A stretch of DNA of 64,000 nt from an uncultured delta proteobacterium (GCA_963776345.1 CAVZMH010000017.1:128001-192000); one strand, 5' to 3'. Shown: positions 3,053 through 64,000, counted from the stretch's first letter. The notes: a model not told the origin generated them from the letters alone. Numbers and translations are program-made.

Positions 3053-3370
3053 CTAGCGAGGATCCGGCGGCGACCCCGGCGAGGAGGGAGCCGTCACCCG
3101 CCCGGCCGGCATCCGCTGGCCCCGGGCATAGACGTAGGTCGCCGCCAGCGCCGTCAGGATCCCGAGGAACCCCGCCAGATCCACCCCGCTTGCATCGGCA
3201 GCGGCGGCGGCGAGGGGGATCGCCTCGGAGGGCTCGACCTCACCGCCCTCCGGCCTCGCGCTCTGGGCGCGGAGCCGGGCGGCGCGCCGGTCCTCGCGCG
3301 CGGTCCCGGCGAGGGCCGGAAGGGAAAGGAGAGCGAGACAGAGCGCGCAGCGACGGAGCGAGGGAGACAT
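3053..3370 (-). CDS. hypothetical exported/membrane-anchored protein
   Basis: Signal peptide (..LPALA), C-terminal hydrophobic helix, co-oriented with neighbours. Confidence 0.5.
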   Translation of the reverse strand: MSPSLRRCALCLALLSLPALAGTAREDRRAARLRAQSARPEGGEVEPSEAIPLAAAAADASGVDLAGFLGILTALAATYVYARGQRMPAGRVTAPSSPGSPPDPR

Positions 3371-3452
3371 CGACGGGATGCCTTCGATTCTCGCCCACGC
3401 CGGAGCGAGCCGTCACCCGTCCCGCGGCCTCATCGACGTGGGTGAGTGTCGC

Positions 3453-3977
3453 TCAACGTCCGAGCTTCACCAACTCGTTGCGGCAGATGTGGCACAGCGA
3501 CGGCTGCTGGCGGTCCACGTCGGCCAGCGAGGTCGCGGCGAACATCGCGCACCGCGCGTCCTCGCAGTAGCTCAGGCCGACGAGGTGCCCCGCCTGGTGC
3601 AGCCCCTGGATCTGCACCCGGCGCCGGAAGATTGTCTCGTCCGCCCCTTGCCGCAGCCGCGAGACGCTGAGGATCGCCACCCGGGACTCGCGGTCCGCCT
3701 CGCCGAAGACGAACGGGCTGTCGGGGACGAAGAGGTCGACGTCGGTCACGCCGAGCACCGTCCCCTCGCGGTCGAGCAGCGGGACCAGCCGCCGCATGAT
3801 GGCGTTGGAGTGGTACTGGTTCCGGTCCTTGTTGAAGGCGTAGGCCGGGGAGGCGAGGGCGGGCTTCCCGTACCCCACCGTCAGCCCGAGCTGGGTGGTC
3901 AGAGGGGCCTCGAGCTCCCGCAGCAGCGTCAGCGGGGCGTTGCCGATGGCGACCATCTGCAGCACGCGGGGAACCAC
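3453..3977 (-). CDS. archaemetzincin-like protein, probably non-proteolytic
   Basis: AmzA-like blocks (RNQYHS, GVTDVDLF, FVFGEA, C..M, LC..C). Zn motif reads HQAGHLVGLSYC. AGGAGG RBS upstream. Confidence 0.85.
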   Translation of the reverse strand: MVPRVLQMVAIGNAPLTLLRELEAPLTTQLGLTVGYGKPALASPAYAFNKDRNQYHSNAIMRRLVPLLDREGTVLGVTDVDLFVPDSPFVFGEADRESRVAILSVSRLRQGADETIFRRRVQIQGLHQAGHLVGLSYCEDARCAMFAATSLADVDRQQPSLCHICRNELVKLGR

Positions 3978-4007
3978 GGAAGGACCCTCCTACGGAAGGC
4001 AGCGAGG

Positions 4008-4078
4008 CTGGGGCGCAAGGATTCGAACCTTGATAGTCAGATCCAAAGTCTGACGTCCTGCCGTTAGACGACGCCCCA
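4008..4078 (-). tRNA. tRNA-Gln (TTG)
   Basis: TGGGGCG/CGCCCCA acceptor stem, anticodon arm TCAGA-CTTTGGA-TCTGA, T-loop GGTTCGAATCC. CCA not encoded (CCT). Confidence 0.97.
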
Positions 4079-4156
4079 GTACATTCAACGGCGTGTGGGG
4101 GGAGCATAAGGGCTTCTCTCGCCCGTCCCAACCAAAGCGAGCGGCGGCCCCGTCCG

Positions 4157-7311
<3,155 letters not shown>

Positions 7312-7399
7312 TCACAAGCGGGGCAGGCGGGCTCAACTGATTGACATTTCAGGGGAATCTGGCTCCTGGAAGCCGGGCGGAACCGGTCCCGGATCGGCC

Positions 7400-7852
7400 T
7401 CAGGCGTCGACCCGCGGAGCCCTCTCCGGACGGGCCAGGACCCGGCCCAGATCGGCGAACACGGAGGGGTCGGAGAACAGCGCCCGGGGCAGCTCGCGAC
7501 GGGTTCCGTCGGCGAGGGTGAGCACCCAGCGAGGTGCCCACCGACCGGTCTGTCGCACCGTCTCGATCTGCGGCCAGAACACGCGCTCGATGCGCCCGTC
7601 GAGCGCCCGGGCGAGATCGGCGCCGGCGAGGTCCACGCGCACGCCGTACCCCTCGCGAGGCCGGAGGCGCCAGGCGAGCCACACGAAGGCCCCACCGAGC
7701 GCCAGGCCGGCCACGCCCCGCGCCGAGGCGGTGGCGCTCCCGCGACCGGCCCGGACGAGCCCGGCCATCCCGAACGCCACGCCAACGACGGCGAAGGCGG
7801 CCAGGAGCGCGCGGAGCCGCGTGGGTCGGTAGGGAAAGAACCTGGGCGTCAT
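7400..7852 (-). CDS. hypothetical membrane protein (2 TM + small soluble domain)
   Basis: ATGA overlap with the recF stop; two hydrophobic helices. Confidence 0.7.
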   Translation of the reverse strand: MTPRFFPYRPTRLRALLAAFAVVGVAFGMAGLVRAGRGSATASARGVAGLALGGAFVWLAWRLRPREGYGVRVDLAGADLARALDGRIERVFWPQIETVRQTGRWAPRWVLTLADGTRRELPRALFSDPSVFADLGRVLARPERAPRVDA

Positions 7853-8979
7853 GCGGTCCGCGCAGGACGGAGCCGAGCATCCTCCGTGACCGCTCCCGAG
7901 TCGACGCGGAGCCAGAGCGAGTCCGGGCCCGAGGCCCGGGCGACGAGGGAGGCGTCGGTGGTGGTGAGCAACACCTGCGCCCGGCTCTCGGCGACGGTGT
8001 GCATGAGAAAGGCGTTGCGCTCCGGGTCGAGCTCGCTCGAGACGTCGTCGAGGAGGAGCAGCGGCGGCCTCCCGAATGCGGCGCGGACGTTCTCGATCTC
8101 GGCGATCTTCCAGCCAAGCACCAGCGCTCGACCCTGTCCCTGCGAGGCGTAGGCCCGCGCGCTCCGTCCTCCGAGCGTGAGCTGTAGGTCGTCGGCGTGT
8201 GGGCCCACGGAGGTGAAGCCCCGCTCGCGATCGCGCCCCAGCCGCTCGCCGAGCGCTTGACGGAGCGCGCCCTCGAGACCGTCCTCGGTCTGCGGATGGT
8301 GCGTCCCGAGGTGGAGCGCGGTGTAGCCGACGGCGACGTCGGGGAGCTGCGAGATGGCCCGCACCGCGGTGACCGCCCGGGGTCCCAGCTCGTCCAGGAG
8401 CGCGCGGCGTCGGACGAGGACCCGGGAACCCGTCCGGGCGAGCGTCTCGTCATAGGCCTCGACGTAGCTCGCCGGCGCATGCTCCTTGAGCAGCCGATTC
8501 CGGCTCTTGAGCGCCCGCTGGTAGGCCCGGTGCTCGCGGAGGTACGCCGGGAACCGGTTGAACACGGCGCGATCGAGGAACGCCCGCCGCACCTCCGGCC
8601 CGCCCTTCACCACCTCGAGGTCATCCGGGGTGAAGGCGACCACGCTCACCCCGCCGAAGTAGTCCTCGAGCCTGGCGGCCCGCTTCCCGTCGACGAAGGA
8701 CTGCCGCAGGCCGGCGGCGACCTGGACCGAGATCTCCCGCTCTGCCCCGCCGAGGGTGAAGCGGCCGGTCACCGTGGCCTGCTCCGTGCCGAAGCGCACC
8801 AGCTCCGAGAGCCGGTTGGCGCGGAGCGGCCGGAGGGTGCAGAGGAAGTAGACCGCCTCGAGCAGGCTGGTCTTGCCCTGGCCGTTGCTGCCCACCACCA
8901 CGGTCGCGTGCGGCGACGGCCGGATGGAGACCGAGCGCAGGTTGCGAAAGTCGGAAGCCTGGAGTTGCTCGAGGAGCAC
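7849..8979 (-). CDS. recF: DNA replication/repair protein RecF
   Basis: FRNL, GSNGQGKTSLLEAV, GPHADD, ASQGQ, LLLDDVSSELD. GTG start overlaps the dnaN TAG. Confidence 0.97.
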   Translation of the reverse strand: MLLEQLQASDFRNLRSVSIRPSPHATVVVGSNGQGKTSLLEAVYFLCTLRPLRANRLSELVRFGTEQATVTGRFTLGGAEREISVQVAAGLRQSFVDGKRAARLEDYFGGVSVVAFTPDDLEVVKGGPEVRRAFLDRAVFNRFPAYLREHRAYQRALKSRNRLLKEHAPASYVEAYDETLARTGSRVLVRRRALLDELGPRAVTAVRAISQLPDVAVGYTALHLGTHHPQTEDGLEGALRQALGERLGRDRERGFTSVGPHADDLQLTLGGRSARAYASQGQGRALVLGWKIAEIENVRAAFGRPPLLLLDDVSSELDPERNAFLMHTVAESRAQVLLTTTDASLVARASGPDSLWLRVDSGAVTEDARLRPARTA

Positions 8980-10085
8980 TACACCCGCATCGGCATGACC
9001 ACCGCGGTGTAGCTGCGATCGCCCGGGACGTGCAGGACGCCCGGGCTGTGGTCGTCTCCGAGCTCGAAGGCGACCTCGTCGGTGTCGAGCACGGCGAGCA
9101 CGTCGGTCAGGTAGCGGGCGTTGAAGCCGATGGTGATCTCGCCGCCGTCGTACTGGACCTCGAGGTCGTCCTTGGCCTCGCCCAGGTCCGGGTTCTGCGA
9201 GCTGATGCGCAGCTGGTTGGTGGTGAGGCCGATCTTCACCGCGTTCGACTTGTCCACGCTGAGCAGCGCGATGCGCTTGAGCGCTTCCTGGAAGCGAACG
9301 CGGGGGAGCTTCACCTTGCGCTCGCCTTCCTTGGGGATGACCCGCTGGTACTCGGGGAACTGCCCGTCGATGAGGCGCATCACCATGGTCAGCCCAGGCT
9401 TCTTGAAGAGCGCCGAGTTCTCCGCGAACCCCAGCGCGCACTCGGCGTCGGGCGCCTCGTCGAGCAGCCGGCGGAGCTCGTGAAGGCCCTTGCGCGGGAT
9501 GATGACCCCGCCCTTGAGCTTGAAGTCCCCGGCGAGCTCGCGCTCGATCAGGGCGAGCCGGTGGCCGTCGGTGGCGACCATCCGGACCTTCCCGCCCTCG
9601 CGGGGCTCGAAGAAGACGCCGTTGAGGATGTAGCGGGTCTCGTCGGTGGAGATGGCGAAGGAGGTCTTGCGGATCATCTCCAGCAGCACCGGACCCGGCA
9701 CCGCGACCAGGTGCGCGCTCTCTTCCCTGGGGAGCTTCGGGTACTCCTCGGGAGACATCCCGACGATCTTGAAATGCGCGCTGCCGCTCTGGAGCTCGGC
9801 GTACTGGTTGGGCAGCTTGCGAACGGTGACCTGCGGCTCGGGCAGGTTCTGGACGATGTCGAAGAGGGTCTTGGCCGAGAGGGTGAGGCTGCCGGGCTTG
9901 GTGACCTCGGCGGGGTGCTCGCTGACGATGCCCACGTCGAGATCGAAGGCGGTGATCTGCACGCCCGACTTGGTCGCGTTGACCAGGACGTTGGAGAGGA
10001 TGGGCATGGTGGTCTTCCGCTCCACGATGCCCTGGGCCCGGTACAGCGCTCGCTTCAGCTCCTCCGCAGCGATGCGGAATTCCAT
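8979..10085 (-). CDS. dnaN: DNA polymerase III beta clamp
   Basis: PILSNV, ATDGHRLA, RLIDGQFPEYQRVIP, VVMPMRV. Confidence 0.98.
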   Translation of the reverse strand: MEFRIAAEELKRALYRAQGIVERKTTMPILSNVLVNATKSGVQITAFDLDVGIVSEHPAEVTKPGSLTLSAKTLFDIVQNLPEPQVTVRKLPNQYAELQSGSAHFKIVGMSPEEYPKLPREESAHLVAVPGPVLLEMIRKTSFAISTDETRYILNGVFFEPREGGKVRMVATDGHRLALIERELAGDFKLKGGVIIPRKGLHELRRLLDEAPDAECALGFAENSALFKKPGLTMVMRLIDGQFPEYQRVIPKEGERKVKLPRVRFQEALKRIALLSVDKSNAVKIGLTTNQLRISSQNPDLGEAKDDLEVQYDGGEITIGFNARYLTDVLAVLDTDEVAFELGDDHSPGVLHVPGDRSYTAVVMPMRV

Positions 10086-56730: not shown

Positions 56731-57299
56731 CCTCGACCCGGCCGGTCCCCACCACGCTGGACTGGCTGCGGGTCAACGTGGCCATCGGCACGCTGAGCTT
56801 CGGGTCGGCGAGCCGCATCGTCCTCTACGAGGACGCGGTGGTGCGCGACCACGGGTGGCTGCCGGCCGACGAGTTCGCCGAGGTGCTCACCGTGGCCCAG
56901 CTGCTCCCCGGGCCCAATCTGGTGAACCTCTCGGCGTACCTCGGATACCGGCTGGTGGGCCCGCTGGGCGCGGTGCTGGGCGTCCTCTGCCTCTGTCTGC
57001 CGGGGGCCGCGCTGGCGGTCGGCCTCTCCGGCGTGCTGGCGGTGGAAAGGCCCTGGGTGCAGGGCCCTCTCCGGGGGATGGCGGTGGCGGGCATCGTGCT
57101 GCTCGGCCCCTTCTTCCGGCGGCTCTTGCCGGGGCTGGGGAGCACCCCGGACCCGGCCGTGCCGGCACGGACGCGGGTGCGGGTGGTCCGCAGCGCGCTG
57201 CTGGCGGGCGTCGCGACGGCGACGCTCTCGGGGGCCTCGCTCTTCGCCGTGCTCGGGCTGGCCATTCCCGTGGCGCTCTTTCTGGAGTTCGCCCTGTGA
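56727..57299 (+). CDS. short-chain chromate transporter, first subunit
   Basis: SFG, AQLLPGPNLVN; GTGA overlap with nadE. Confidence 0.85.
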   Translation: MTSTRPVPTTLDWLRVNVAIGTLSFGSASRIVLYEDAVVRDHGWLPADEFAEVLTVAQLLPGPNLVNLSAYLGYRLVGPLGAVLGVLCLCLPGAALAVGLSGVLAVERPWVQGPLRGMAVAGIVLLGPFFRRLLPGLGSTPDPAVPARTRVRVVRSALLAGVATATLSGASLFAVLGLAIPVALFLEFAL

Positions 57300-58087
57300 A
57301 GCTGCTCGGGCTCTTCTGGATCTTCTTCCGGCTGGGGCTGGTCTCCTTCGGGGGAGTGTTCGCGGTCCTGCCGGAGCTGCAGCGGGCGCTGGTGGACCAG
57401 GGCTTCGTCACGTCCGAGGGGTTCGTCCAGGCCTTCGTGCTGGGGCAGGTGGTGCCCGGGCCGAACATGGCCATGTGCCCCGTGATTGGCTGGCACGTGG
57501 CCGGGCTTCCCGGCGCCGTGGTCGCCTTCGTCGGCATCTACACGGGACCGGTGGCCATCATGGGCGCGGCGTACGCCGTCTACCACCGGTGGCGGCGCGT
57601 GACCTGGGTGCGGCGGCTCGAGCTTGCGATGCGCCCGGTGGTGCTCGGACTGCTCGGGGCCTCTGCCCTGTCGCTGCTCTGGTCCTCGAGTTCGCCCTGT
57701 GAAGCTTCTGGCGCTGTTCTGGATCTTCTTCCGGCTCGGGCTGGTGAGCTTCGGGAGCGTCTTCGCCGTGCTTCCCGAGCTGCAGCGGGCGCTGGTGGAC
57801 CAGGGGTTCATCACGCCGGAGGGGTTCGTCCAGGCGTTCGTGCTCGGCCAGGTGGTGCCGGGGCCGAACATGGCGATGTGCACCGTCATCGGCTGGCACG
57901 TCGCCGGCCTCGCGGGCGCCGTGGTCGCCTTCGTCGGGATCTACAGCGGCCCGGTGGCGATCATGGGCGGGGCGTACGCCGTGTACCACCGCTGGCGGGG
58001 CGTGATCTGGGTGCGGCGGCTCGAGCTGGCGCTCCGGCCGGTGGTGCTGGGGCTGCTCGCGGCCTCGGCGGCGTCGCTCCTGTGGAC
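57285..58087. repeat. diverged 403-bp tandem duplication
   Basis: GAGTTCGCCCTGTGAAGCT at 57285 and 57688; the copies are colinear. Confidence 0.9.
57296..57684 (+). pseudogene. truncated duplicate of chromate transporter second subunit
   Basis: 129 aa with 13 differences from the next gene; lacks the last ~46 aa and runs out of frame to 58273. Confidence 0.75.
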
Positions 58088-58226
58088 CGCGGCGGGGAAG
58101 CAGCACCTGCTCGCGCTGGGCGTCGCGCTGGTGGTCGGCGTGCTCGCGGTGAGGACGCGGCTCGGAGCGCTCGCGCTTCTCTTCGTCGGCGGCCTGGCGT
58201 GGTCGCTGGGTCAGGCGGCGCTCTGA
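57699..58226 (+). CDS. short-chain chromate transporter, second subunit (intact)
   Basis: SFG, GQVVPGPN, RPVVLGLL; complete TM C-terminus. Confidence 0.85.
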   Translation: MKLLALFWIFFRLGLVSFGSVFAVLPELQRALVDQGFITPEGFVQAFVLGQVVPGPNMAMCTVIGWHVAGLAGAVVAFVGIYSGPVAIMGGAYAVYHRWRGVIWVRRLELALRPVVLGLLAASAASLLWTAAGKQHLLALGVALVVGVLAVRTRLGALALLFVGGLAWSLGQAAL

Positions 58227-58250
58227 GCGCGGACGGGGCCTGGGGGATCG

Positions 58251-58859
58251 TCAGTCCTCGACGATGGTGGTGACCTTCGCCAGGACCTCGTCGAGCACGC
58301 CGCGGAGCTTGCGCATGGTGCCGGGGGTGAGCCGACCGCGGCGGGCGGCGCGGCGGAGCACCCGGAAGAGCTGCGCGGCCCGCTGCATCAGATCGGCGAG
58401 ATCCTCGGCGCTCTCGGCCCATCCCGCCGCGCCGGAGCGCTCGTAGAATTCCTCCACCTCCGCGCGGTGCTCCTGGAGGTCCCGCTGACCCTCGGGCGTG
58501 ATGGCGTAGGTGCGCCGTCCGTCGTCCTCGGTGCCGCGGACGTGGCGCAGCTCCTCCAGCATCTGCAGCGTGGGGTAGATGACCCCGGGGCTCGGCCGGT
58601 ACGTCTGACCGCTGCGCTCCTCGATGGCCTGCATGATCTCGTAGCCGTGCCGGGGCTGCTTCTCCAGCGCGTCGAGCACCAGGTACCGGACTGCTCCTCG
58701 CTCCGCCCGCGGCGGCGGACCTCCGAACATGTCCCACCACTCGTGCCGTCCACCGGGGCCCCGTCGCCCCCACGGGCTCCGCCCCATGAACATGCCGGGG
58801 TGCCATCCCCACGGATCTCCGGGTCGCATCGCGCACTCCTTGCCGGACTCGCCGGCCAT
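58251..58859 (-). CDS. PadR-family transcriptional regulator
   Basis: PRHGYEIM..IEE, PSPGVIYPTL..LEE, Y.ITPEG; G/R/W-rich N-terminus. Confidence 0.93.
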   Translation of the reverse strand: MAGESGKECAMRPGDPWGWHPGMFMGRSPWGRRGPGGRHEWWDMFGGPPPRAERGAVRYLVLDALEKQPRHGYEIMQAIEERSGQTYRPSPGVIYPTLQMLEELRHVRGTEDDGRRTYAITPEGQRDLQEHRAEVEEFYERSGAAGWAESAEDLADLMQRAAQLFRVLRRAARRGRLTPGTMRKLRGVLDEVLAKVTTIVED

Positions 58860-58861
58860 GC

Positions 58862-58897
58862 CGACACATCGGAAGATGTGTCTTGTAGATATGTCTA
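58862..58897. promoter_or_regulatory. putative PadR autoregulatory operator
   Basis: Perfect inverted repeat GACACATC-GGAA-GATGTGTC plus TAGATATGTCTA. Confidence 0.65.
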
Positions 58898-59005
58898 TAG
58901 CAACGTTCTGTCCGCCGCGCCACGGGGAGCGCGCGGGCCGGCTCCGGCACGACGAGGCGCGCCGGAGCTACCCGGCGCTCGGCACGACGCCGTGACTCCG
59001 CAGAG

Positions 59006-60097
59006 CTAGAGGGCCAGCTCCTTCACCGGGACTTCCTTGTAGGTGAACTCCCGCGTCCAGTCGGAGCTCTGCTTTCCGTCGATCTCCACGTAGGCCTTGA
59101 CCAGGGAGTTGGCGGGCCCCTCATCTTGCGGAGGCTCGAAGACCAGATCACGCCCCGTCGACCACACCACCCGGCGCTCGTCGATGTTGCCGAAGTAGTA
59201 GTCGACCTTGCTCCGGTCCAGGCCCTTGTATCCGGTGGCGGTGGTCAGCTCGACCAGCTTCTTGTTCTTGTCGGTGATCGGGAATTCCTTGCCGTAGATG
59301 TTGGCCAGCGAGACATCGAGCGGCACCCAACCCACCCGCGGCGCGTAGAACTGGATCCAGCAGTGGTAGCTGCCGTCGACGGCGATCCCGTTCAGGGTCG
59401 GCTTCAGCAGCGACCCGTAGATCATCCTGGTGGGGATCCCGGAGGCCATCGCCAGCGAGGCGAAGAGGGAGTGGAAATCGGTGCAGTTCCCGGTCTTGGT
59501 GTTCAGGCAGTACTCGGTGCTCCCCACCGGCGACGCCTTGAGGTGGTCGGGATCCTTCACCCAGTAGTCGACGTTCTGCAGCGTCCAGTCGTAGATCTTC
59601 CGCGACGCCTTGATCGGGTTGGTCTCGTTGCCCACGATCGACGCGGCGAGCGCCTTGACCCGGTCGTTCACCACCACGTGGGTGGTGGGCTGGAGGTAGC
59701 GGGCCAGGGCGGTTCGCTCCCAGTCGGAGAGGGGCCGGGTGGCGGAGGGATCGGTCGCGGTCCGCATCTCGGTCCGCACCAGGTCGAACTCCTCGCGGAT
59801 CGACACCTTGTCCGCGGCCGGCGACTTCAGCTCGAGATAGCCGACCCGGTTCCCACCCGAGTCGTCCTCGACGGCGATCTTCCCCGCATCGGCGGTCAAG
59901 GTGAGGTTCTTGATGGTGGACCAGGCATCCTCCTGGGGCATCGCGAACCAGACCCGGACGCGCTGCGCCCCCTTGGGAACCTTCACCGTGAAGGTGTTCT
60001 TGACGTGGAATCCCGCTTGCTTCGGCGCATCGGCGGCCAGTGCCGAGGCGGCGAGCAGAACGGACGACAGCATCACCAGCCGACCCTGACGCATCAC
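59006..60097 (-). CDS. exported transglutaminase-like protein
   Basis: Signal peptide (..SALA), Cys-His-Asp triad GNCTDFH / YHCW / WVPLD. Confidence 0.88.
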   Translation of the reverse strand: MMRQGRLVMLSSVLLAASALAADAPKQAGFHVKNTFTVKVPKGAQRVRVWFAMPQEDAWSTIKNLTLTADAGKIAVEDDSGGNRVGYLELKSPAADKVSIREEFDLVRTEMRTATDPSATRPLSDWERTALARYLQPTTHVVVNDRVKALAASIVGNETNPIKASRKIYDWTLQNVDYWVKDPDHLKASPVGSTEYCLNTKTGNCTDFHSLFASLAMASGIPTRMIYGSLLKPTLNGIAVDGSYHCWIQFYAPRVGWVPLDVSLANIYGKEFPITDKNKKLVELTTATGYKGLDRSKVDYYFGNIDERRVVWSTGRDLVFEPPQDEGPANSLVKAYVEIDGKQSSDWTREFTYKEVPVKELAL

Positions 60098-61608
60098 GGT
60101 CCTCCTCCGTCACGAAGTCGCCGTGCCGCCTCGGCGATGACCCTGAGCTTCGCGGCGGCAACCGAATCCGAAGCGAGGGGATTGTCGGCAAAGGTGGCAA
60201 AGCCACAATCGGGGGTGAAGAGCACCCGGTCGCGCCCGAGCAGGTCCACCGCCCGGTTCGCCCGGGCCAGGACCTCGTCGACGCCCTCCACCCGCGACGA
60301 CTTCTGGTTCACCAGCCCCACCCCGATGCGCTTGTCGGGCGGAATTTCCCGGAGCAGCGCCATCTCTCCGGCCCGCGGCGTGGCCAGCTCGAGCAGCAGC
60401 GTCCCCACCGGGGCCTGGCGGAGGAGCGGAAGGAGCGGCCGGTAGTCGCCGGCGAGGGCCACGCTCTCGTCGGGCGTCCAGTTCCCCCGACAGACGTGCA
60501 TCGCCAGCCGCTCGCGCGGCAGCCCGCGGGTGACCGCGGTCAGCAGCTCCAGGGCGAACCCCAGCTCCTCCGCTGCGTCTCGACGGGCGCCGAGCGCTCC
60601 GCACATGAACGAGCGCTGGGCCCGGGGGGTCCCGAAGACGACCTCGCTCAGCACCGGCTCGTCGAGCTGCACCAGCGCCGCCCCGGCGTCGAGCAGCTCC
60701 ACCACCTCGGCCCGGAGCGCGTCCACCACGTCGGTGGCGAGCTCCTCCCGGGTGGCGTAGGTCCGCTCCGAGACGCACTCCAGGAACATGGTCCGGGTGA
60801 GGAGGTACGGCCCGGGCAGCGCCACCTTGACCGCGGCGCCCGGCGCCAGGGCCTGCACGAAGCGGAGCTCGTGGAGGGCCAGAGGGCGCGTCCGCCGGAT
60901 CGGACCGAAGACGGCCGGGTGACGCACGCGCTCTGCCGGGACGTCCAGGGAGCGGAGCTCCTCCCGGAACTCCTCCGGGTCGTCGACGTAGGGAAGGAGG
61001 TCGGTGATCGGAACCAGCTGGCAACCGTCGAGGAGGCCTCCGACGAAGCTGGCGTAGTTGTCGCGCCGCTGCTCCCCGTCGGTCAGCACGTCCACCCCGG
61101 CCTCCCGCTGGGCGCTCACCGCGAGGCGGACGGCGTCGTCGGCGGTCCGCTCGAACTCCTCGTCCGGGAGCCGGCGCTCGAGGTGCTCGTGGAGCGCCTG
61201 CAGCATCCACCGCGGCCGGGGCCAGCTCCCGATGCCCATCACCGCCAGCGGGGGAATGGGAGGGGCGGGGACCTTCGCCGGTGGGACGGGCGAGGGCTCC
61301 ACCGTCGCCGGACGGGCCACGGCCGGTCGCGGTTCGGGCGGGGTGACTCCAGCGCTCCGGCCGAAGGCCCCCTTGCTCACCAGGAAGCTCGATTCCTTCC
61401 CTTCCCGGAAGCGGGAGACGAGCTCGTTCCCCGTCATCCGGCACCAGGCGGGCAGCTCCTCGTCCACCGAGATCTCGCGCGAGCGGATCTCCAGCAGCTC
61501 TCCAGGCGCGAGGGGGTCGATGTGCTTGCGGATCAGGAGCAGCAGGCCGTTGCCGCAGTCGAGGTCGCCCCCGTCGAAGCTGGCCTTGGGCGGGAAGGGG
61601 TGGCCCAT
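60094..61608 (-). CDS. TusA-like domain fused to cobalamin-independent methionine synthase-like Zn domain
   Basis: N-terminal FDGGDLDCG...WCRMTG; Pro linker; GSWPRP, TDGEQRR, QLDEP, HVCRGN, LEL, PDCG. Confidence 0.88.
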   Translation of the reverse strand: MGHPFPPKASFDGGDLDCGNGLLLLIRKHIDPLAPGELLEIRSREISVDEELPAWCRMTGNELVSRFREGKESSFLVSKGAFGRSAGVTPPEPRPAVARPATVEPSPVPPAKVPAPPIPPLAVMGIGSWPRPRWMLQALHEHLERRLPDEEFERTADDAVRLAVSAQREAGVDVLTDGEQRRDNYASFVGGLLDGCQLVPITDLLPYVDDPEEFREELRSLDVPAERVRHPAVFGPIRRTRPLALHELRFVQALAPGAAVKVALPGPYLLTRTMFLECVSERTYATREELATDVVDALRAEVVELLDAGAALVQLDEPVLSEVVFGTPRAQRSFMCGALGARRDAAEELGFALELLTAVTRGLPRERLAMHVCRGNWTPDESVALAGDYRPLLPLLRQAPVGTLLLELATPRAGEMALLREIPPDKRIGVGLVNQKSSRVEGVDEVLARANRAVDLLGRDRVLFTPDCGFATFADNPLASDSVAAAKLRVIAEAARRLRDGGGP

Positions 61609-61622
61609 CGCCGTCCGGGCCC

Positions 61623-61985
61623 CTAGTAGCTCACGCAGGGACTGCCCTCGGAGAGGAACTCCACCAGCTTGGCGCCGCCCACCACCGTGGCGCCCTCGAC
61701 CAGCCTGGTCTCGTCGAGCCCGCGCTTCTTGAAGCAGGGCGAGCAGACGAAGATCTTGCCCCCCGCCTTCACGAAGTTGCCCATCAGCTCGGCGAGGGGG
61801 GCGAATCCCTGCTCGTGGATGTCCGCGGCGTAGCCCTGCTGCGAGAGCCGCACCCCCTCGATGCTGAGGAAGACCATCGTCTCCTTGTCCGAGGCGACGG
61901 CGGCGTTGGCGACCACGAAGGCCACGGTGGCCTTGTCGGTGTCGTTCTTGGCGTAGCTGAGGCTCACACAGAACCGCTTGCTCAT
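61623..61985 (-). CDS. DsrE/DsrF-like protein
   Basis: FLSIEGV, VCSPCFKKRG, GA..VGG; ATGA overlap with tusA-like gene. Confidence 0.88.
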   Translation of the reverse strand: MSKRFCVSLSYAKNDTDKATVAFVVANAAVASDKETMVFLSIEGVRLSQQGYAADIHEQGFAPLAELMGNFVKAGGKIFVCSPCFKKRGLDETRLVEGATVVGGAKLVEFLSEGSPCVSY

Positions 61986-62245
61986 GGCGTGCTCCTTCGT
62001 TCGATGAGGTAGTGGGGAGGGTTCGCCTCCAGGAGGCGATGACCGGTCATCCGGCACCAGGCCGGGAGGTCCTCCGGCGCGCCGGGGTCGTGCGCCACGA
62101 CCCGCAGACGCTGCCCCGGCGACAGCGCAGCGAGCTTGTTGCGCAGCAGGAGGACGAGCTCACCGCAGCCGGTGTGGCCGGCATCCCACTCGGCGTGGGG
62201 ACTCAGGTCTGCGGCGCGACCCGGCGCCGCATCGAGCGGAGTCAC
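61982..62245 (-). CDS. TusA-family sulfur carrier
   Basis: WDAGHTGCGEL, L.PGQ.L.V...DPGA.EDLPAWCRMTGH. Confidence 0.88.
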   Translation of the reverse strand: MTPLDAAPGRAADLSPHAEWDAGHTGCGELVLLLRNKLAALSPGQRLRVVAHDPGAPEDLPAWCRMTGHRLLEANPPHYLIERRSTP

Positions 62246-62360
62246 AACCGTCTCCGGGGCGCTCGAGGACGCATGGGAGGCGATGTTCTACCAACGCACT
62301 CGAACGAGCGGCAAGGAACACTCGCTGCCATCGCAGCGCGTCAACCGCGCCGGACCGTGG

Positions 62361-62846
62361 TCAGCGCCGGTGGACGCTGCGGTCCCGGCCGGCCTGCTTG
62401 GCGCGGATGCAGGCCGCCTCGGCCGCCTCGAGCAGGTTGCCCCACGGTTCGGACGGACGGAGCGACGCCACCCCCACGCTGACCGTCGCCATCACGCAGG
62501 GGTCCGCCCGCGCTGCCCCCCGGAGCCGGTCCGCCAGCGCGCAGGCCCGCGCGAGCGCCCACCCCGGGAGCAGGAGCGCGAAGGTGTCCGACCCCAGCCG
62601 CCCGATGGGCCCCGCCCCGCTGCACTCGGCCGAGATGCGCTGGGCGAGCGCCTCGAGGCAGCTGTCCGCGGCCAGGTCGCCCCGCACGTCCCGGAGGGCC
62701 TGGAACTCGTCCACGTCCACCACCAGCAGGCTGCACGGCTGCGCCGCCCGGCGCGCCACCTGGACCGCGAACGCCACCTCGCGCTCGAACGCCTGCCGCG
62801 TGTAGACGCCGGTCTCGAGGTCCAGCTCCACCACGCGGGCGCTCAT
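62361..62846 (-). CDS. stand-alone degenerate GGDEF domain protein
   Basis: D.ETG, VDVDEF, RLGSDTF, TVSVGVA, AKQAGRDR. Confidence 0.85.
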   Translation of the reverse strand: MSARVVELDLETGVYTRQAFEREVAFAVQVARRAAQPCSLLVVDVDEFQALRDVRGDLAADSCLEALAQRISAECSGAGPIGRLGSDTFALLLPGWALARACALADRLRGAARADPCVMATVSVGVASLRPSEPWGNLLEAAEAACIRAKQAGRDRSVHRR

Positions 62847-63466
62847 GGCGCGCTCGCTCCCGAGGCGGCCCGGGTCTTGGCCGCGGCGCGCACGAACCCG
62901 TCGTACTGCCGGAGCGCCGCCTCTCCCACCAGCTGGATGTGGTGGTTGTTGAGCCAGGCGGTGATGGGCGCGGCCACCAGCGGCATCGCCCGGCCGATCG
63001 AGGCGAACCCGCCGCGCTCGGCGAGCACCGCCGCCACCTTGCCCAGCACCCTGGGCCCGGAGCGCCGGAGCGGACCGACCCCGTTCGCCTCGCCGAGGAC
63101 GCCCAGCAGCTCGGTCCGCGCGCGCCCGAAGCGGAGATCCACCTCGTACGCGGTGGCGATGTCGGCCAGCATCCGGATCTGCAGCCAGGCCATCACCAGG
63201 AGGTCCGCCGGCACGCTCACCAGCCCGAACACGCCGCTGACCGACCCGCTGAGCGAGGCCAGGCCCTTGGTCGACTCGATGGCGTGCTGCCCCAGCTCGC
63301 GTGGGCCGGCGGACGGGTAGCGCGTCCGCAGCGCCTTCATCCGGGCCCGGGACCGCTTGGCCTCCAGCGCGACCACGTCCTCCATCCGGAGCGACCCCAG
63401 CCGCTGCAGGGCCGCGGGGCGGAGCTTCTTCAAGAAGGCGAGGCGTTCGCTGTCGAGCAGTCCCAC
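62843..63466 (-). CDS. EcsC-family protein
   Basis: G..SGVFGL..VPAD, IA.AY, GRAMPLV.A; ATGA overlap with the GGDEF gene. Confidence 0.7.
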   Translation of the reverse strand: MGLLDSERLAFLKKLRPAALQRLGSLRMEDVVALEAKRSRARMKALRTRYPSAGPRELGQHAIESTKGLASLSGSVSGVFGLVSVPADLLVMAWLQIRMLADIATAYEVDLRFGRARTELLGVLGEANGVGPLRRSGPRVLGKVAAVLAERGGFASIGRAMPLVAAPITAWLNNHHIQLVGEAALRQYDGFVRAAAKTRAASGASAP

Positions 63467-63579
63467 GGCGGGAGAATCCTGGCAGCGGCCCGGTGTCCCC
63501 CGCAACGGGCGAGCGAGCGTGCCGCGCAGATCGATGAACGCCGGAGCGGCCGGTGCGATTTCGCCCGACGTTCGCGCCT

Positions 63580-64000
63580 CTACGACTGCCCCAGGCGCGA
63601 GGCCACCCGGGTCGCCTCCTCGACTGCCCGGGCGAGGACCGAGCGGATGCGCCCGTCCTCCAGGGTGAGCAGCCCGGCGATGGTGCACCCGGCCGGCGTG
63701 GTCACCTGGTCCTTCAGCGCGGCGGGGTGCATCCCGGTCTGGAGCACCATCCGCGCCGACCCCTGGAGCATCTGGGCGGCAATTTCCATCGCCACGTCCC
63801 GGCGGAGGCCCATCATCACCCCGCCTTCTGCCAGCGCCTCGACGATGAGGTAGGCGAACGCCGGCCCGCTGCTGTTGAGGGCGGTCACCACGTCCATCGA
63901 CTTCTCCTCGAGCTCGAGGCAGCGGCCCACCGCCTGGAACAGCTTGATCGCGGTGTGTACGTGTGCGTCCGTGGCCAGCGGGCCGCGGGACACCACCGTC
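63580..64000 (-). CDS. proC: pyrroline-5-carboxylate reductase (5'-truncated)
   Basis: SGPAF, EALAEGGV..GL.R, LKDQVTTPAGCTI.GL. Confidence 0.93.
   Translation of the reverse strand, partial: TVVSRGPLATDAHVHTAIKLFQAVGRCLELEEKSMDVVTALNSSGPAFAYLIVEALAEGGVMMGLRRDVAMEIAAQMLQGSARMVLQTGMHPAALKDQVTTPAGCTIAGLLTLEDGRIRSVLARAVEEATRVASRLGQS

Follow-up and report, generated by a model that had tools for sequence, protein, structure and literature searches.

Small cysteine carriers of the TusA and DsrE families exchange persulfide or thiosulfonate sulfur in relays such as TusA-TusBCD, DsrEFH and DsrE3-TusA, which take part in tRNA thiolation and sulfur oxidation. Members of the same two Pfam families are encoded side by side in a 64,000-nt stretch of DNA from an uncultured delta proteobacterium (GCA_963776345.1 CAVZMH010000017.1:128001-192000; hereafter referred to as the window). 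Here, four co-oriented genes on the minus strand (59006-62245) code for a free TusA carrier, a DsrE protein, a fusion of a TusA-like domain with a MetE-like barrel (TusA::MetE-like) and a transglutaminase-like protein. In contrast to the known relays, the window contains no rhodanese, Dsr, Hdr or tRNA-modification genes, and the presumed acceptor within the cassette is a zinc alkyltransferase-type barrel. The two carriers also score far below the curated models, with 41 bits for free TusA against the equivalog TusA model NF001423 (cut-off 78) and 16.6 bits for DsrE against the DsrE2 model (cut-off 210), so that the latter protein is not a DsrE2 family member. The first three genes form a conserved unit, for which we tentatively favor a role outside routine methionine synthesis: a conserved relay of cysteine carriers would hand sulfur or selenium to a zinc-containing, homocysteine-binding barrel of the MetE type.

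The two carrier folds also act together in YedF (TIGR03527), which combines a TusA/SirA-like and a DsrE-like part and for which Lin et al. (2015; PMC5322559) report a statistical association with SelD. YedF is a single two-domain protein, whereas TusA and DsrE of the cassette are encoded by separate genes. The TusA motif of the cassette is CG rather than CPxP, and the CxxC motif of the DsrE-like portion reads CGXC in YedF, as compared to CSPC in the cassette. Unlike YedF, the carrier pair of the cassette is always joined with a MetE-like enzyme, and neither TusA nor DsrE of the window matched TIGR03527 at E <= 0.01.

On the enzyme side, MesD-type core methionine synthases (3RPD; Price et al., 2021; PMC7857596) resemble the fusion: each consists of just one Meth_synt_2 barrel, lacks the N-terminal barrel that binds folate, and retains the zinc ligands along with the motifs of the homocysteine site. 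MesD works with the partner protein MesX (DUF1852, PF08908), whose gene usually adjoins. The fusion differs from MesD in its N-terminal TusA domain, its linker, its cysteine-containing loops (C196 and C336) and its obligate linkage to DsrE. Two-barrel MetE shares with the fusion the His-x-Cys, Glu and Cys ligands of the zinc site as well as its homocysteine-binding stretches IGS, GE..R.D and DEP; the entire N-terminal barrel, in contrast, is missing from the fusion. This absence had already been described in an initial annotation of the window and agrees with the score of 17.6 bits against PF08267 (cut-off 27). A third comparison is provided by the Rv1679/Rv1680/Rv1681 cluster (NF049984, NF049985, NF049973), which codes for acyl-CoA-dehydrogenase-like, binding-protein-like and TusA::radical S-adenosylmethionine (SAM) proteins. 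As in the fusion, a TusA domain is joined to an end enzyme; however, the Rv1681-type end enzyme is a radical SAM protein instead of a zinc barrel, and the cluster is devoid of DsrE. Full-text literature searches, with subscription journals outside their scope, retrieved no paper naming any two of Rv1679, Rv1680 and Rv1681 and, with bioRxiv supplements likewise outside the scope, none on a TusA::MetE-like cassette. The words “fused,” “fusion,” “SirA,” and “PF01206” are absent from the accessible text of Price et al. (2021).

A conserved TusA-DsrE-fusion unit

Relatives of the fusion are numerous. Of 8000 candidates scored in a word-index search, 7685 reached E <= 1e-3; the top 120 are all approximately 500 aa long and 64-90% identical to the fusion. 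A library of representatives at 50% identity contained 142 clusters at E <= 1e-30, many of them fragments, including three full-length fused forms (47-65% identity) and a series of unfused proteins of 360-395 aa (30-46%). A confirmed fusion locus was found in at least 549 species genomes (GTDB, one genome per species). The best 80 of these loci, to which all counts out of 80 refer, stem from Myxococcota, Planctomycetota, Burkholderiales and several Alphaproteobacteria as well as from Binatia, Acidobacteriota, Actinomycetota and Rokubacteriota. Over at least eight phyla, the cassette proteins retain 60-68% identity. In the following, related loci carry L numbers, and genomes of the Myxococcota or Burkholderiales-order samples carry G numbers.

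Upstream gene order was assessed in those 66 of the 80 loci that include at least 1300 bp of upstream DNA. The DsrE gene is located upstream of the fusion on the same strand in every one of them, and a separate TusA gene is present in 58, the exceptions being seven Binatia loci and L074. Forty-eight loci are as compact as the window, while 23 carry an insert of 1-2.6 kb between DsrE and the fusion. The recurrence of this order in all 66 loci is far more than chance would produce. TusA, DsrE and the fusion constitute a conserved unit, in line with the conservation of the fusion that the initial annotation had required. The distribution is patchy, with the cassette found in 17 of 401 sampled Myxococcota, in two of nine genomes of the own genus and in six of 181 genomes from the order of Duganella, which suggests that it spread laterally. 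In two of the 80 loci, both metagenome-assembled, the fusion is interrupted by an in-frame TAG at residues 285 (L029, 8400-8600) and 317 (L046, 8560-8760), respectively; these copies may represent pseudogenes or assembly errors. One of 19 Myxococcota fusion matches also carries a TAG.

The carriers themselves are recognizable members of their families. The nearest solved sequences of free TusA are those of E. coli TusA/YhhP (1DCJ and 3LVJ, E 2.4e-11), and DsrE is closest to the DsrE/DsrF-like protein 3MC3 (E 1e-9). The fused TusA-like stretch scores 26.2 bits against PF01206, just under the cut-off of 28.6, but is matched to free TusA by phmmer (E 2e-12) and forms an alpha/beta unit (residues 9-78) in the AlphaFold2 (AF2) model. 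The active-site cysteine is conserved in both contexts (C27 in 76 of 77 free TusA homologs, C18 in all of 21 diverse aligned fusions), with a C-G motif in place of the classical CPxP. All sequence motifs listed in the initial annotation are present, namely the CG motifs, WCRMTG, CSPC, the zinc ligands (HxC, E, PDCG) and the cysteine of SFMCGA. Two of them are not distinctive: the second TusA cysteine is a general property of the TusA set (77 of 77) and the C-terminal DsrE cysteine, C117, is retained in only 36 of 87 homologs.

The tethered MetE-like enzyme and its proposed reaction

Seven cysteines (C18, C56, C196, C278, C336, C373, and C468) are invariant in the 21 aligned fusions. The predicted zinc ligands H371, C373, E407, and C468 are equally invariant and are retained in three of three unfused relatives. 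In profile alignments to solved structures, the zinc motifs pair with HICYG and PDCG/NCG of 3RPD and MetE, and GIGSWPRP, DGEQRRDN, LPGPY, QLDEPVL, and PDCGF pair with stretches of MetE. A motif-level mapping aligns GIGSWPRP, DGEQRRDN, and QLDEPVL with IGSFPQT, HGEPERND, and QVDEPAI of C. albicans MetE. In T. maritima MetE, the stretches paired with the fusion motifs contain both the zinc ligands and the homocysteine ligands Ile409/Ser411, Glu462, and Asp577 (PMC539065).

By sequence and fold, the nearest solved structure is the Shewanella core methionine synthase 3RPD, with an identity of 22-24% (sequence match E 1.2e-17 with the protein and 4.2e-36 with the profile; top Foldseek match, E 1.8e-20, template modeling score 0.82 on the target). 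Two loops, at residues ~191-226 (containing C196) and 325-341 (containing C336), are not matched by any part of 3RPD in the alignment. At 45-46% identity, unfused relatives retain C336 together with all residues of the zinc and homocysteine sites, while C196, C278, and the TusA domain are absent. Thus, C336 defines a wider clade, whereas C196 and C278 accompany the tethered carrier; the additional cysteine of SFMCGA pointed out in the initial annotation is a genuine feature of the family. The linker varies between 27 and 52 residues in the 21 homologs and consists of 22% Ala and 22% Pro. The AF2 model of the fusion has a mean predicted local distance difference test (pLDDT) score of 73.6, with values below 50 at residues 16-21, 84-111, 186-193, and 328-341.

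Genome content indicates that the fusion is unlikely to be a housekeeping methionine synthase. The own genome, which is 98% complete, encodes a full MetH and has no Meth_synt_2 gene other than the fusion. MetH is present in six of six genomes tested, comprising the own genome and the cultured carriers Duganella, Caballeronia, Nitrospirillum, Aquabacter, and Bordetella genomosp. 12, and three of these five isolates possess a full MetE (769-788 aa) in addition. No cobalamin, SAM or other Rfam riboswitch reached gathering score in nine related loci (141 kb), and no Rfam element was detected at E <= 1 in positions 58000-64000 of the window. The own genome and three relatives yielded no match to MesX (PF08908), in a search that had no positive control, and MesX is not among the neighbor clusters present in at least three of the 80 loci. 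It is this coexistence with MetH and MetE, together with the missing riboswitches and MesX, that argues against a housekeeping role. Furthermore, curated methionine-synthase models are all far under cut-off, the best being the single-barrel model NF003317 (161.9 bits, cut-off 406), while the MetE model TIGR01371 yields 81.3 bits (cut-off 929.95).

As the fusion is conserved, linked to DsrE, coexistent with MetH and MetE and equipped with the site motifs and C336, a carrier relay that feeds a zinc thiol-alkyltransferase is the most economical explanation. The initial annotation had proposed such a relay as distinct from ordinary methionine synthesis, and gene linkage, MetH/MetE coexistence and site motifs support this part of it; the two further elements, a transglutaminase partner and sulfur as the specific cargo, did not find the same support (see below). 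From gene order, conservation, invariant cysteines, motif retention and coexistence with MetH/MetE, we infer the following transfer steps. Free TusA and DsrE would load a chalcogen atom, which in lineages with a hypophosphite-type ATP-binding cassette (ABC) importer might possibly derive from a small imported oxyanion, and would transfer it to C18 in the TusA domain of the fusion. The flexible linker could let this domain reach the barrel, so that C18 might deliver the chalcogen to the C336 loop and the zinc site. There, C336 and the zinc-bound thiol or thiolate of a homocysteine-like amino acid would receive the chalcogen or react with it. The outcome would be a carbon-chalcogen or chalcogen-chalcogen bond made or remodeled on this amino acid. 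The transglutaminase-like protein, once exported, would be a lineage-specific periplasmic helper that stands outside the core.

Several observations weigh against this proposal. The homocysteine site is assigned by motif alignment at approximately 20% identity with no ligand complex, and an intact homocysteine and zinc site would equally be expected of a plain core methionine synthase. AF2 confidence is low precisely at the loops of interest (16-21, 186-193, and 328-341). The cassette of the window is compact and has no importer gene. In seven Binatia loci of a single lineage, the cassette adjoins metY-metX-metW. Finally, instead of transferring an atom, the carriers could repair the zinc site by redox chemistry. 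Cystathionine-synthase-like genes are also found among the cassette neighbors and, together with metY-metX-metW, point to sulfur amino-acid metabolism.

The fusion joins persulfide carrier relays with zinc-activated thiol alkylation, a combination that has not been described before, in a protein that is shared by hundreds of species. Its study could bring to light a new step in how soil and freshwater bacteria metabolize sulfur or selenium amino acids, correct the automatically assigned “methionine synthase” label on thousands of database entries and explain the equally unstudied Rv1679-Rv1681-type clusters. Direct testing is possible because Duganella, Massilia, Azospirillum, Xanthobacter, and Anaeromyxobacter, all of them cultured and tractable genera, carry the cassette. 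New contributions of the window itself are the transglutaminase-like accessory gene and its limits, the deletion derivative in genome G075 and the link to Rv1679-1681-type genes, all of which are described below.

Selenium delivery and spare methionine synthesis as alternatives

The initial annotation regarded sulfur as the carried element. As stated, this is not supported, and both sulfur and selenium are candidates. If the cassette specifically handled selenium, its carriers would capture this element, e.g., from selenite taken up by the cell, and relay it to the barrel, from where it would proceed to SelD or a seleno-amino acid. We consider this doubtful, although a number of loci are suggestive of such a role. 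SelD is encoded within 7 kb of the fusion in four of the 80 loci (L036, L040, L051, and L076) and at a distance of 2.4 kb in G450. In G121, selA and selD are arranged convergently about 450 bp from the operon of an unfused relative (L110, C15:17000-33000; 3318-9900), which comprises OsmC-like, Rv1680-like, unfused MetE-like barrel and Rv1679-like dehydrogenase genes. The pairing of TusA with a CxxC-containing DsrE matches the architecture of YedF, a protein with a statistical link to SelD (PMC5322559), and the family of the importer binding protein includes the putative selenate binder TIGR04553, with weak matches of 77-96 bits. Moreover, the own genome encodes SelD with an in-frame TGA, SelA and tRNA-Sec, and SelD is found in 25 of 27 cassette genomes.

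However, SelD is common regardless of the cassette (301 of 401 Myxococcota and 139 of 181 Burkholderiales-order genomes), which renders its co-occurrence barely informative. Among the six Burkholderiales cassette genomes, only four showed SelD; it was not found in G517 and G551, whose completeness is not established. No SelD gene is located nearby in 76 of the 80 loci, and the selenium genes of the own genome lie on other contigs. A selenocysteine (TGA) variant of the fusion did not occur in the loci examined, in which the two interrupted copies carry TAG. The selenium link is therefore suggestive only, with co-occurrence of SelD but without clear enrichment. The selD gene of the own genome (C20:109736-110665, L081) contains one in-frame TGA, as is typical of selenocysteine-containing SelD; such in-frame-TGA selD genes are common to many relatives within the order and absent from others within the family.

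It is unlikely that the fusion is a spare folate- and cobalamin-independent methionine synthase, i.e., a MesD-like core MetE whose methyl transfer is supplied or protected by the fused TusA domain and the separate carriers, e.g., by holding the zinc thiolates in their reduced state or by carrying a methyl donor. This explanation agrees with 3RPD being the best match in sequence and fold and with the retention of zinc and homocysteine-site motifs. A B12-free backup would be sensible in the own genome, where MetH, the only other methionine synthase, depends on B12, and the Binatia copies next to metY, metX and metW fit as well; this link, however, is limited to one lineage. Three of the five isolates already own both MetH and full MetE, and neither the nine loci nor the window contain a cobalamin or SAM riboswitch. 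MesX is missing from the conserved neighbors and, in a weak search without positive control, from the own genome. The curated scores, at best 161.9 of 406 bits, argue in the same direction, and no known methionine synthase has a use for the invariant cysteines of the carriers or for the strict linkage to DsrE. A third, redundant methionine synthase is thus a possible but less simple interpretation.

Accessory genes and limits of the unit

Accessory genes vary by lineage and all code for envelope or import proteins. In 15-16 of the 80 loci (e.g., L006:4486-6970), a hypophosphite-type ABC importer is located between DsrE and the fusion; these loci belong to Oxalobacteraceae and other Burkholderiales, Nitrospirillum and one Rokubacteriota metagenome-assembled genome. 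The best structural match of its binding protein is HtxB, which binds hypophosphite (PDB 5ME4, E 1.4e-82), and the accompanying permease and ATPase are recognized by the PhnE and PhnC models, respectively. No phosphite- or hypophosphite-oxidizing genes were seen among the conserved neighbors. In a further 8-9 of the 80 loci (e.g., L056:4537-6919), found in Xanthobacteraceae, Azospirillum, Bordetella and others, the same place is occupied by a gene pair for a membrane protein of ~214 aa with a CxxC motif and a periplasmic, signal-peptide-containing protein of ~580 aa with a C-terminal anchor. The alphaproteobacterial pair proteins showed no Pfam or NCBIfam match, and the protein atlas returned only a sub-threshold S-layer lead (0.86).

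A wider gene network becomes visible around the unfused barrels. In G121, G252, and G319, the unfused barrel forms one operon with Rv1680-family binding-protein-like and Rv1679-family acyl-CoA-dehydrogenase-like genes (L110, L111, and L098). Some fused genes share this neighborhood: both families are encoded directly 3' of the fused gene in L065, and the dehydrogenase-like gene follows it in L018. A complete cluster of the Rv1679/Rv1680/Rv1681 type is located elsewhere in the own genome, on a separate contig (C22:595227-598501; L112:4227-7501, minus strand), and its Rv1681-family TusA::radical SAM protein scores 417.7 bits (cut-off 380). No true Rv1681-family member is present in the three genomes with an unfused barrel, while G000 and G075 have one and lack an unfused barrel. 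These five genomes give no more than a hint that the zinc barrel and the TusA-linked radical SAM enzyme may be interchangeable, and both these enzymes and the network neighbors fit a carrier-fed, bond-forming step. More speculatively, and rather improbably in our estimation, the tethered MetE-like barrel and the TusA-linked radical SAM enzymes would be alternative end enzymes of one undescribed pathway that introduces a chalcogen into a homocysteine-like amino acid, with oxyanion import in some lineages and the transglutaminase-like protein as an interchangeable periplasmic front end. If true, biology would have a further, new way of forming a bond between carbon and sulfur or selenium.

The transglutaminase-like protein consists of a signal-peptide-like N-terminus (read by eye and supported by an N-terminal helix in the AF2 model), a beta-sandwich domain and a transglutaminase core, whose triad of C204, H244, and D260 is invariant in eight of eight orthologs. 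Its AF2 model is weak (pLDDT 63) and retrieved, by Foldseek, the putative cysteine protease 3ISR (E 2.3e-15) followed by the periplasmic domain of TgpA (6G49, E 4e-7). With these proteins from Cytophaga and P. aeruginosa, respectively, it has the core, the Cys-His-Asp triad and, by prediction, the extracytoplasmic location in common; it differs in being soluble, with a signal-peptide-like N-terminus and the beta-sandwich domain ahead of the core, at an identity of 13-18%.

In all, a transglutaminase-like gene was found beside the cassette in seven loci from three phyla. It is adjacent in four of the 80 loci that were identified via the fusion: downstream in L001, as in the window, and upstream of TusA in L047, L066, and L067 (Planctomycetota and Thermoanaerobaculia). 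A search starting from the transglutaminase-like protein in the 401 Myxococcota identified orthologs with at least 70% identity in G000, G242, G159, G075, G303, and G355 (a fragment). Four of the five assessable orthologs adjoin the cassette or its remnant, while G303 has no cassette gene within 1.4 kb. In G075 (L109, C8:140000-153000; 3114-7817), an intact transglutaminase-like gene with 93% identity is directly preceded by a 113-residue C-terminal remnant of the fusion, which is itself fused to upstream DNA, and is followed on its 3' side by a second module composed of TusA, DsrE and a PqqD/radical SAM/SPASM::TusA protein. This locus is a deletion derivative; the fusion remnant rules out a clean swap of the MetE-like gene for the radical SAM gene. 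The transglutaminase-like protein is accordingly a real but lineage-restricted add-on and not the general partner envisaged in the initial annotation.

Transglutaminase-like cysteine proteases take part in some peptide pathways. A peptide- or protein-modification system, in which such a protease would cooperate with a maturase fed by TusA-DsrE and a barrel that alkylates a peptide cysteine, would agree with this and with the peptide-maturase domain set that follows the transglutaminase-like gene in G075, but it is highly improbable, given that G075 is a deletion derivative with a fusion remnant, that the gene accompanies only four of the 80 loci, that the protein is apparently exported while the carriers are cytoplasmic, that the barrel retains binding motifs for a free amino acid (homocysteine) and that no precursor peptide gene stood out, although no search aimed at such genes was made.

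The features of the cassette are listed in Table 1. Open reading frames, Pfam scores and a reading of the junctions confirmed the initially described layout of four co-oriented genes: the TusA stop and DsrE start share an ATGA, 14 nt separate the DsrE TAG from the ATG of the fusion, and the fusion stop and transglutaminase-like start overlap in a TGATG, while a GTG located 3 nt further upstream is an alternative start.

Table 1. Features of the cassette and their positions in the window.
Feature	Position	Strand	Remarks
Free TusA-family carrier, 87 aa	61982..62245	minus	PF01206 43 bits, cut-off 28.6
Free TusA active-site Cys27 in GCG motif	62165-62167	minus	kept in 76/77 homologs
Free TusA second Cys64 in WCRMTG		minus	kept in 77/77 homologs, related loci
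DsrE-family protein, 120 aa	61623..61985	minus	PF02635 56.2 bits, cut-off 22.7
DsrE CSPC motif, C81 and C84	C81 61743-61745; C84 61734-61736	minus	both kept in 87/87 homologs
TusA::MetE-like fusion, 504 aa	60094..61608	minus	
Fusion, TusA-like domain, residues 9-79	61372..61584	minus	C18 (DCG), C56 (WCRMTG)
Fusion, Ala/Pro-rich linker, residues 80-117	61258..61371	minus	predicted flexible
Fusion, single MetE-like (Meth_synt_2) barrel, residues 118-504	60097..61257	minus	PF01717 100.9 bits
Fusion, clade-specific Cys C336 (FMCG)	60601-60603	minus	
Putatively exported transglutaminase-like (Cys-His-Asp) protein, 362 aa	59006..60094	minus	PF01841 79.9 bits, cut-off 23
Transglutaminase-like catalytic Cys204	59483-59485	minus	predicted from triad conservation
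Terminator-like hairpin	62323..62338	minus	consensus match only

The hairpin is situated between TusA and an upstream GGDEF gene and likely marks the 5' limit of the unit. Three terminator-like sites were counted in the region, as compared to a mean of 1.0 in shuffled sequences, and a sigma-70 consensus scan of the region returned no promoter sites. Since the downstream PadR gene recurs in none and the upstream GGDEF gene in only one of the 80 related loci, both are placed outside the unit. The G+C content of the transglutaminase-like gene (0.649) and of the DsrE gene (0.661) is lower than that of the window (0.712), with G+C at third codon positions still high. On the plus strand at ~57280-58230, two successive open reading frame stretches encode near-identical membrane-protein segments of ~130 residues, an arrangement that resembles a tandem duplication.

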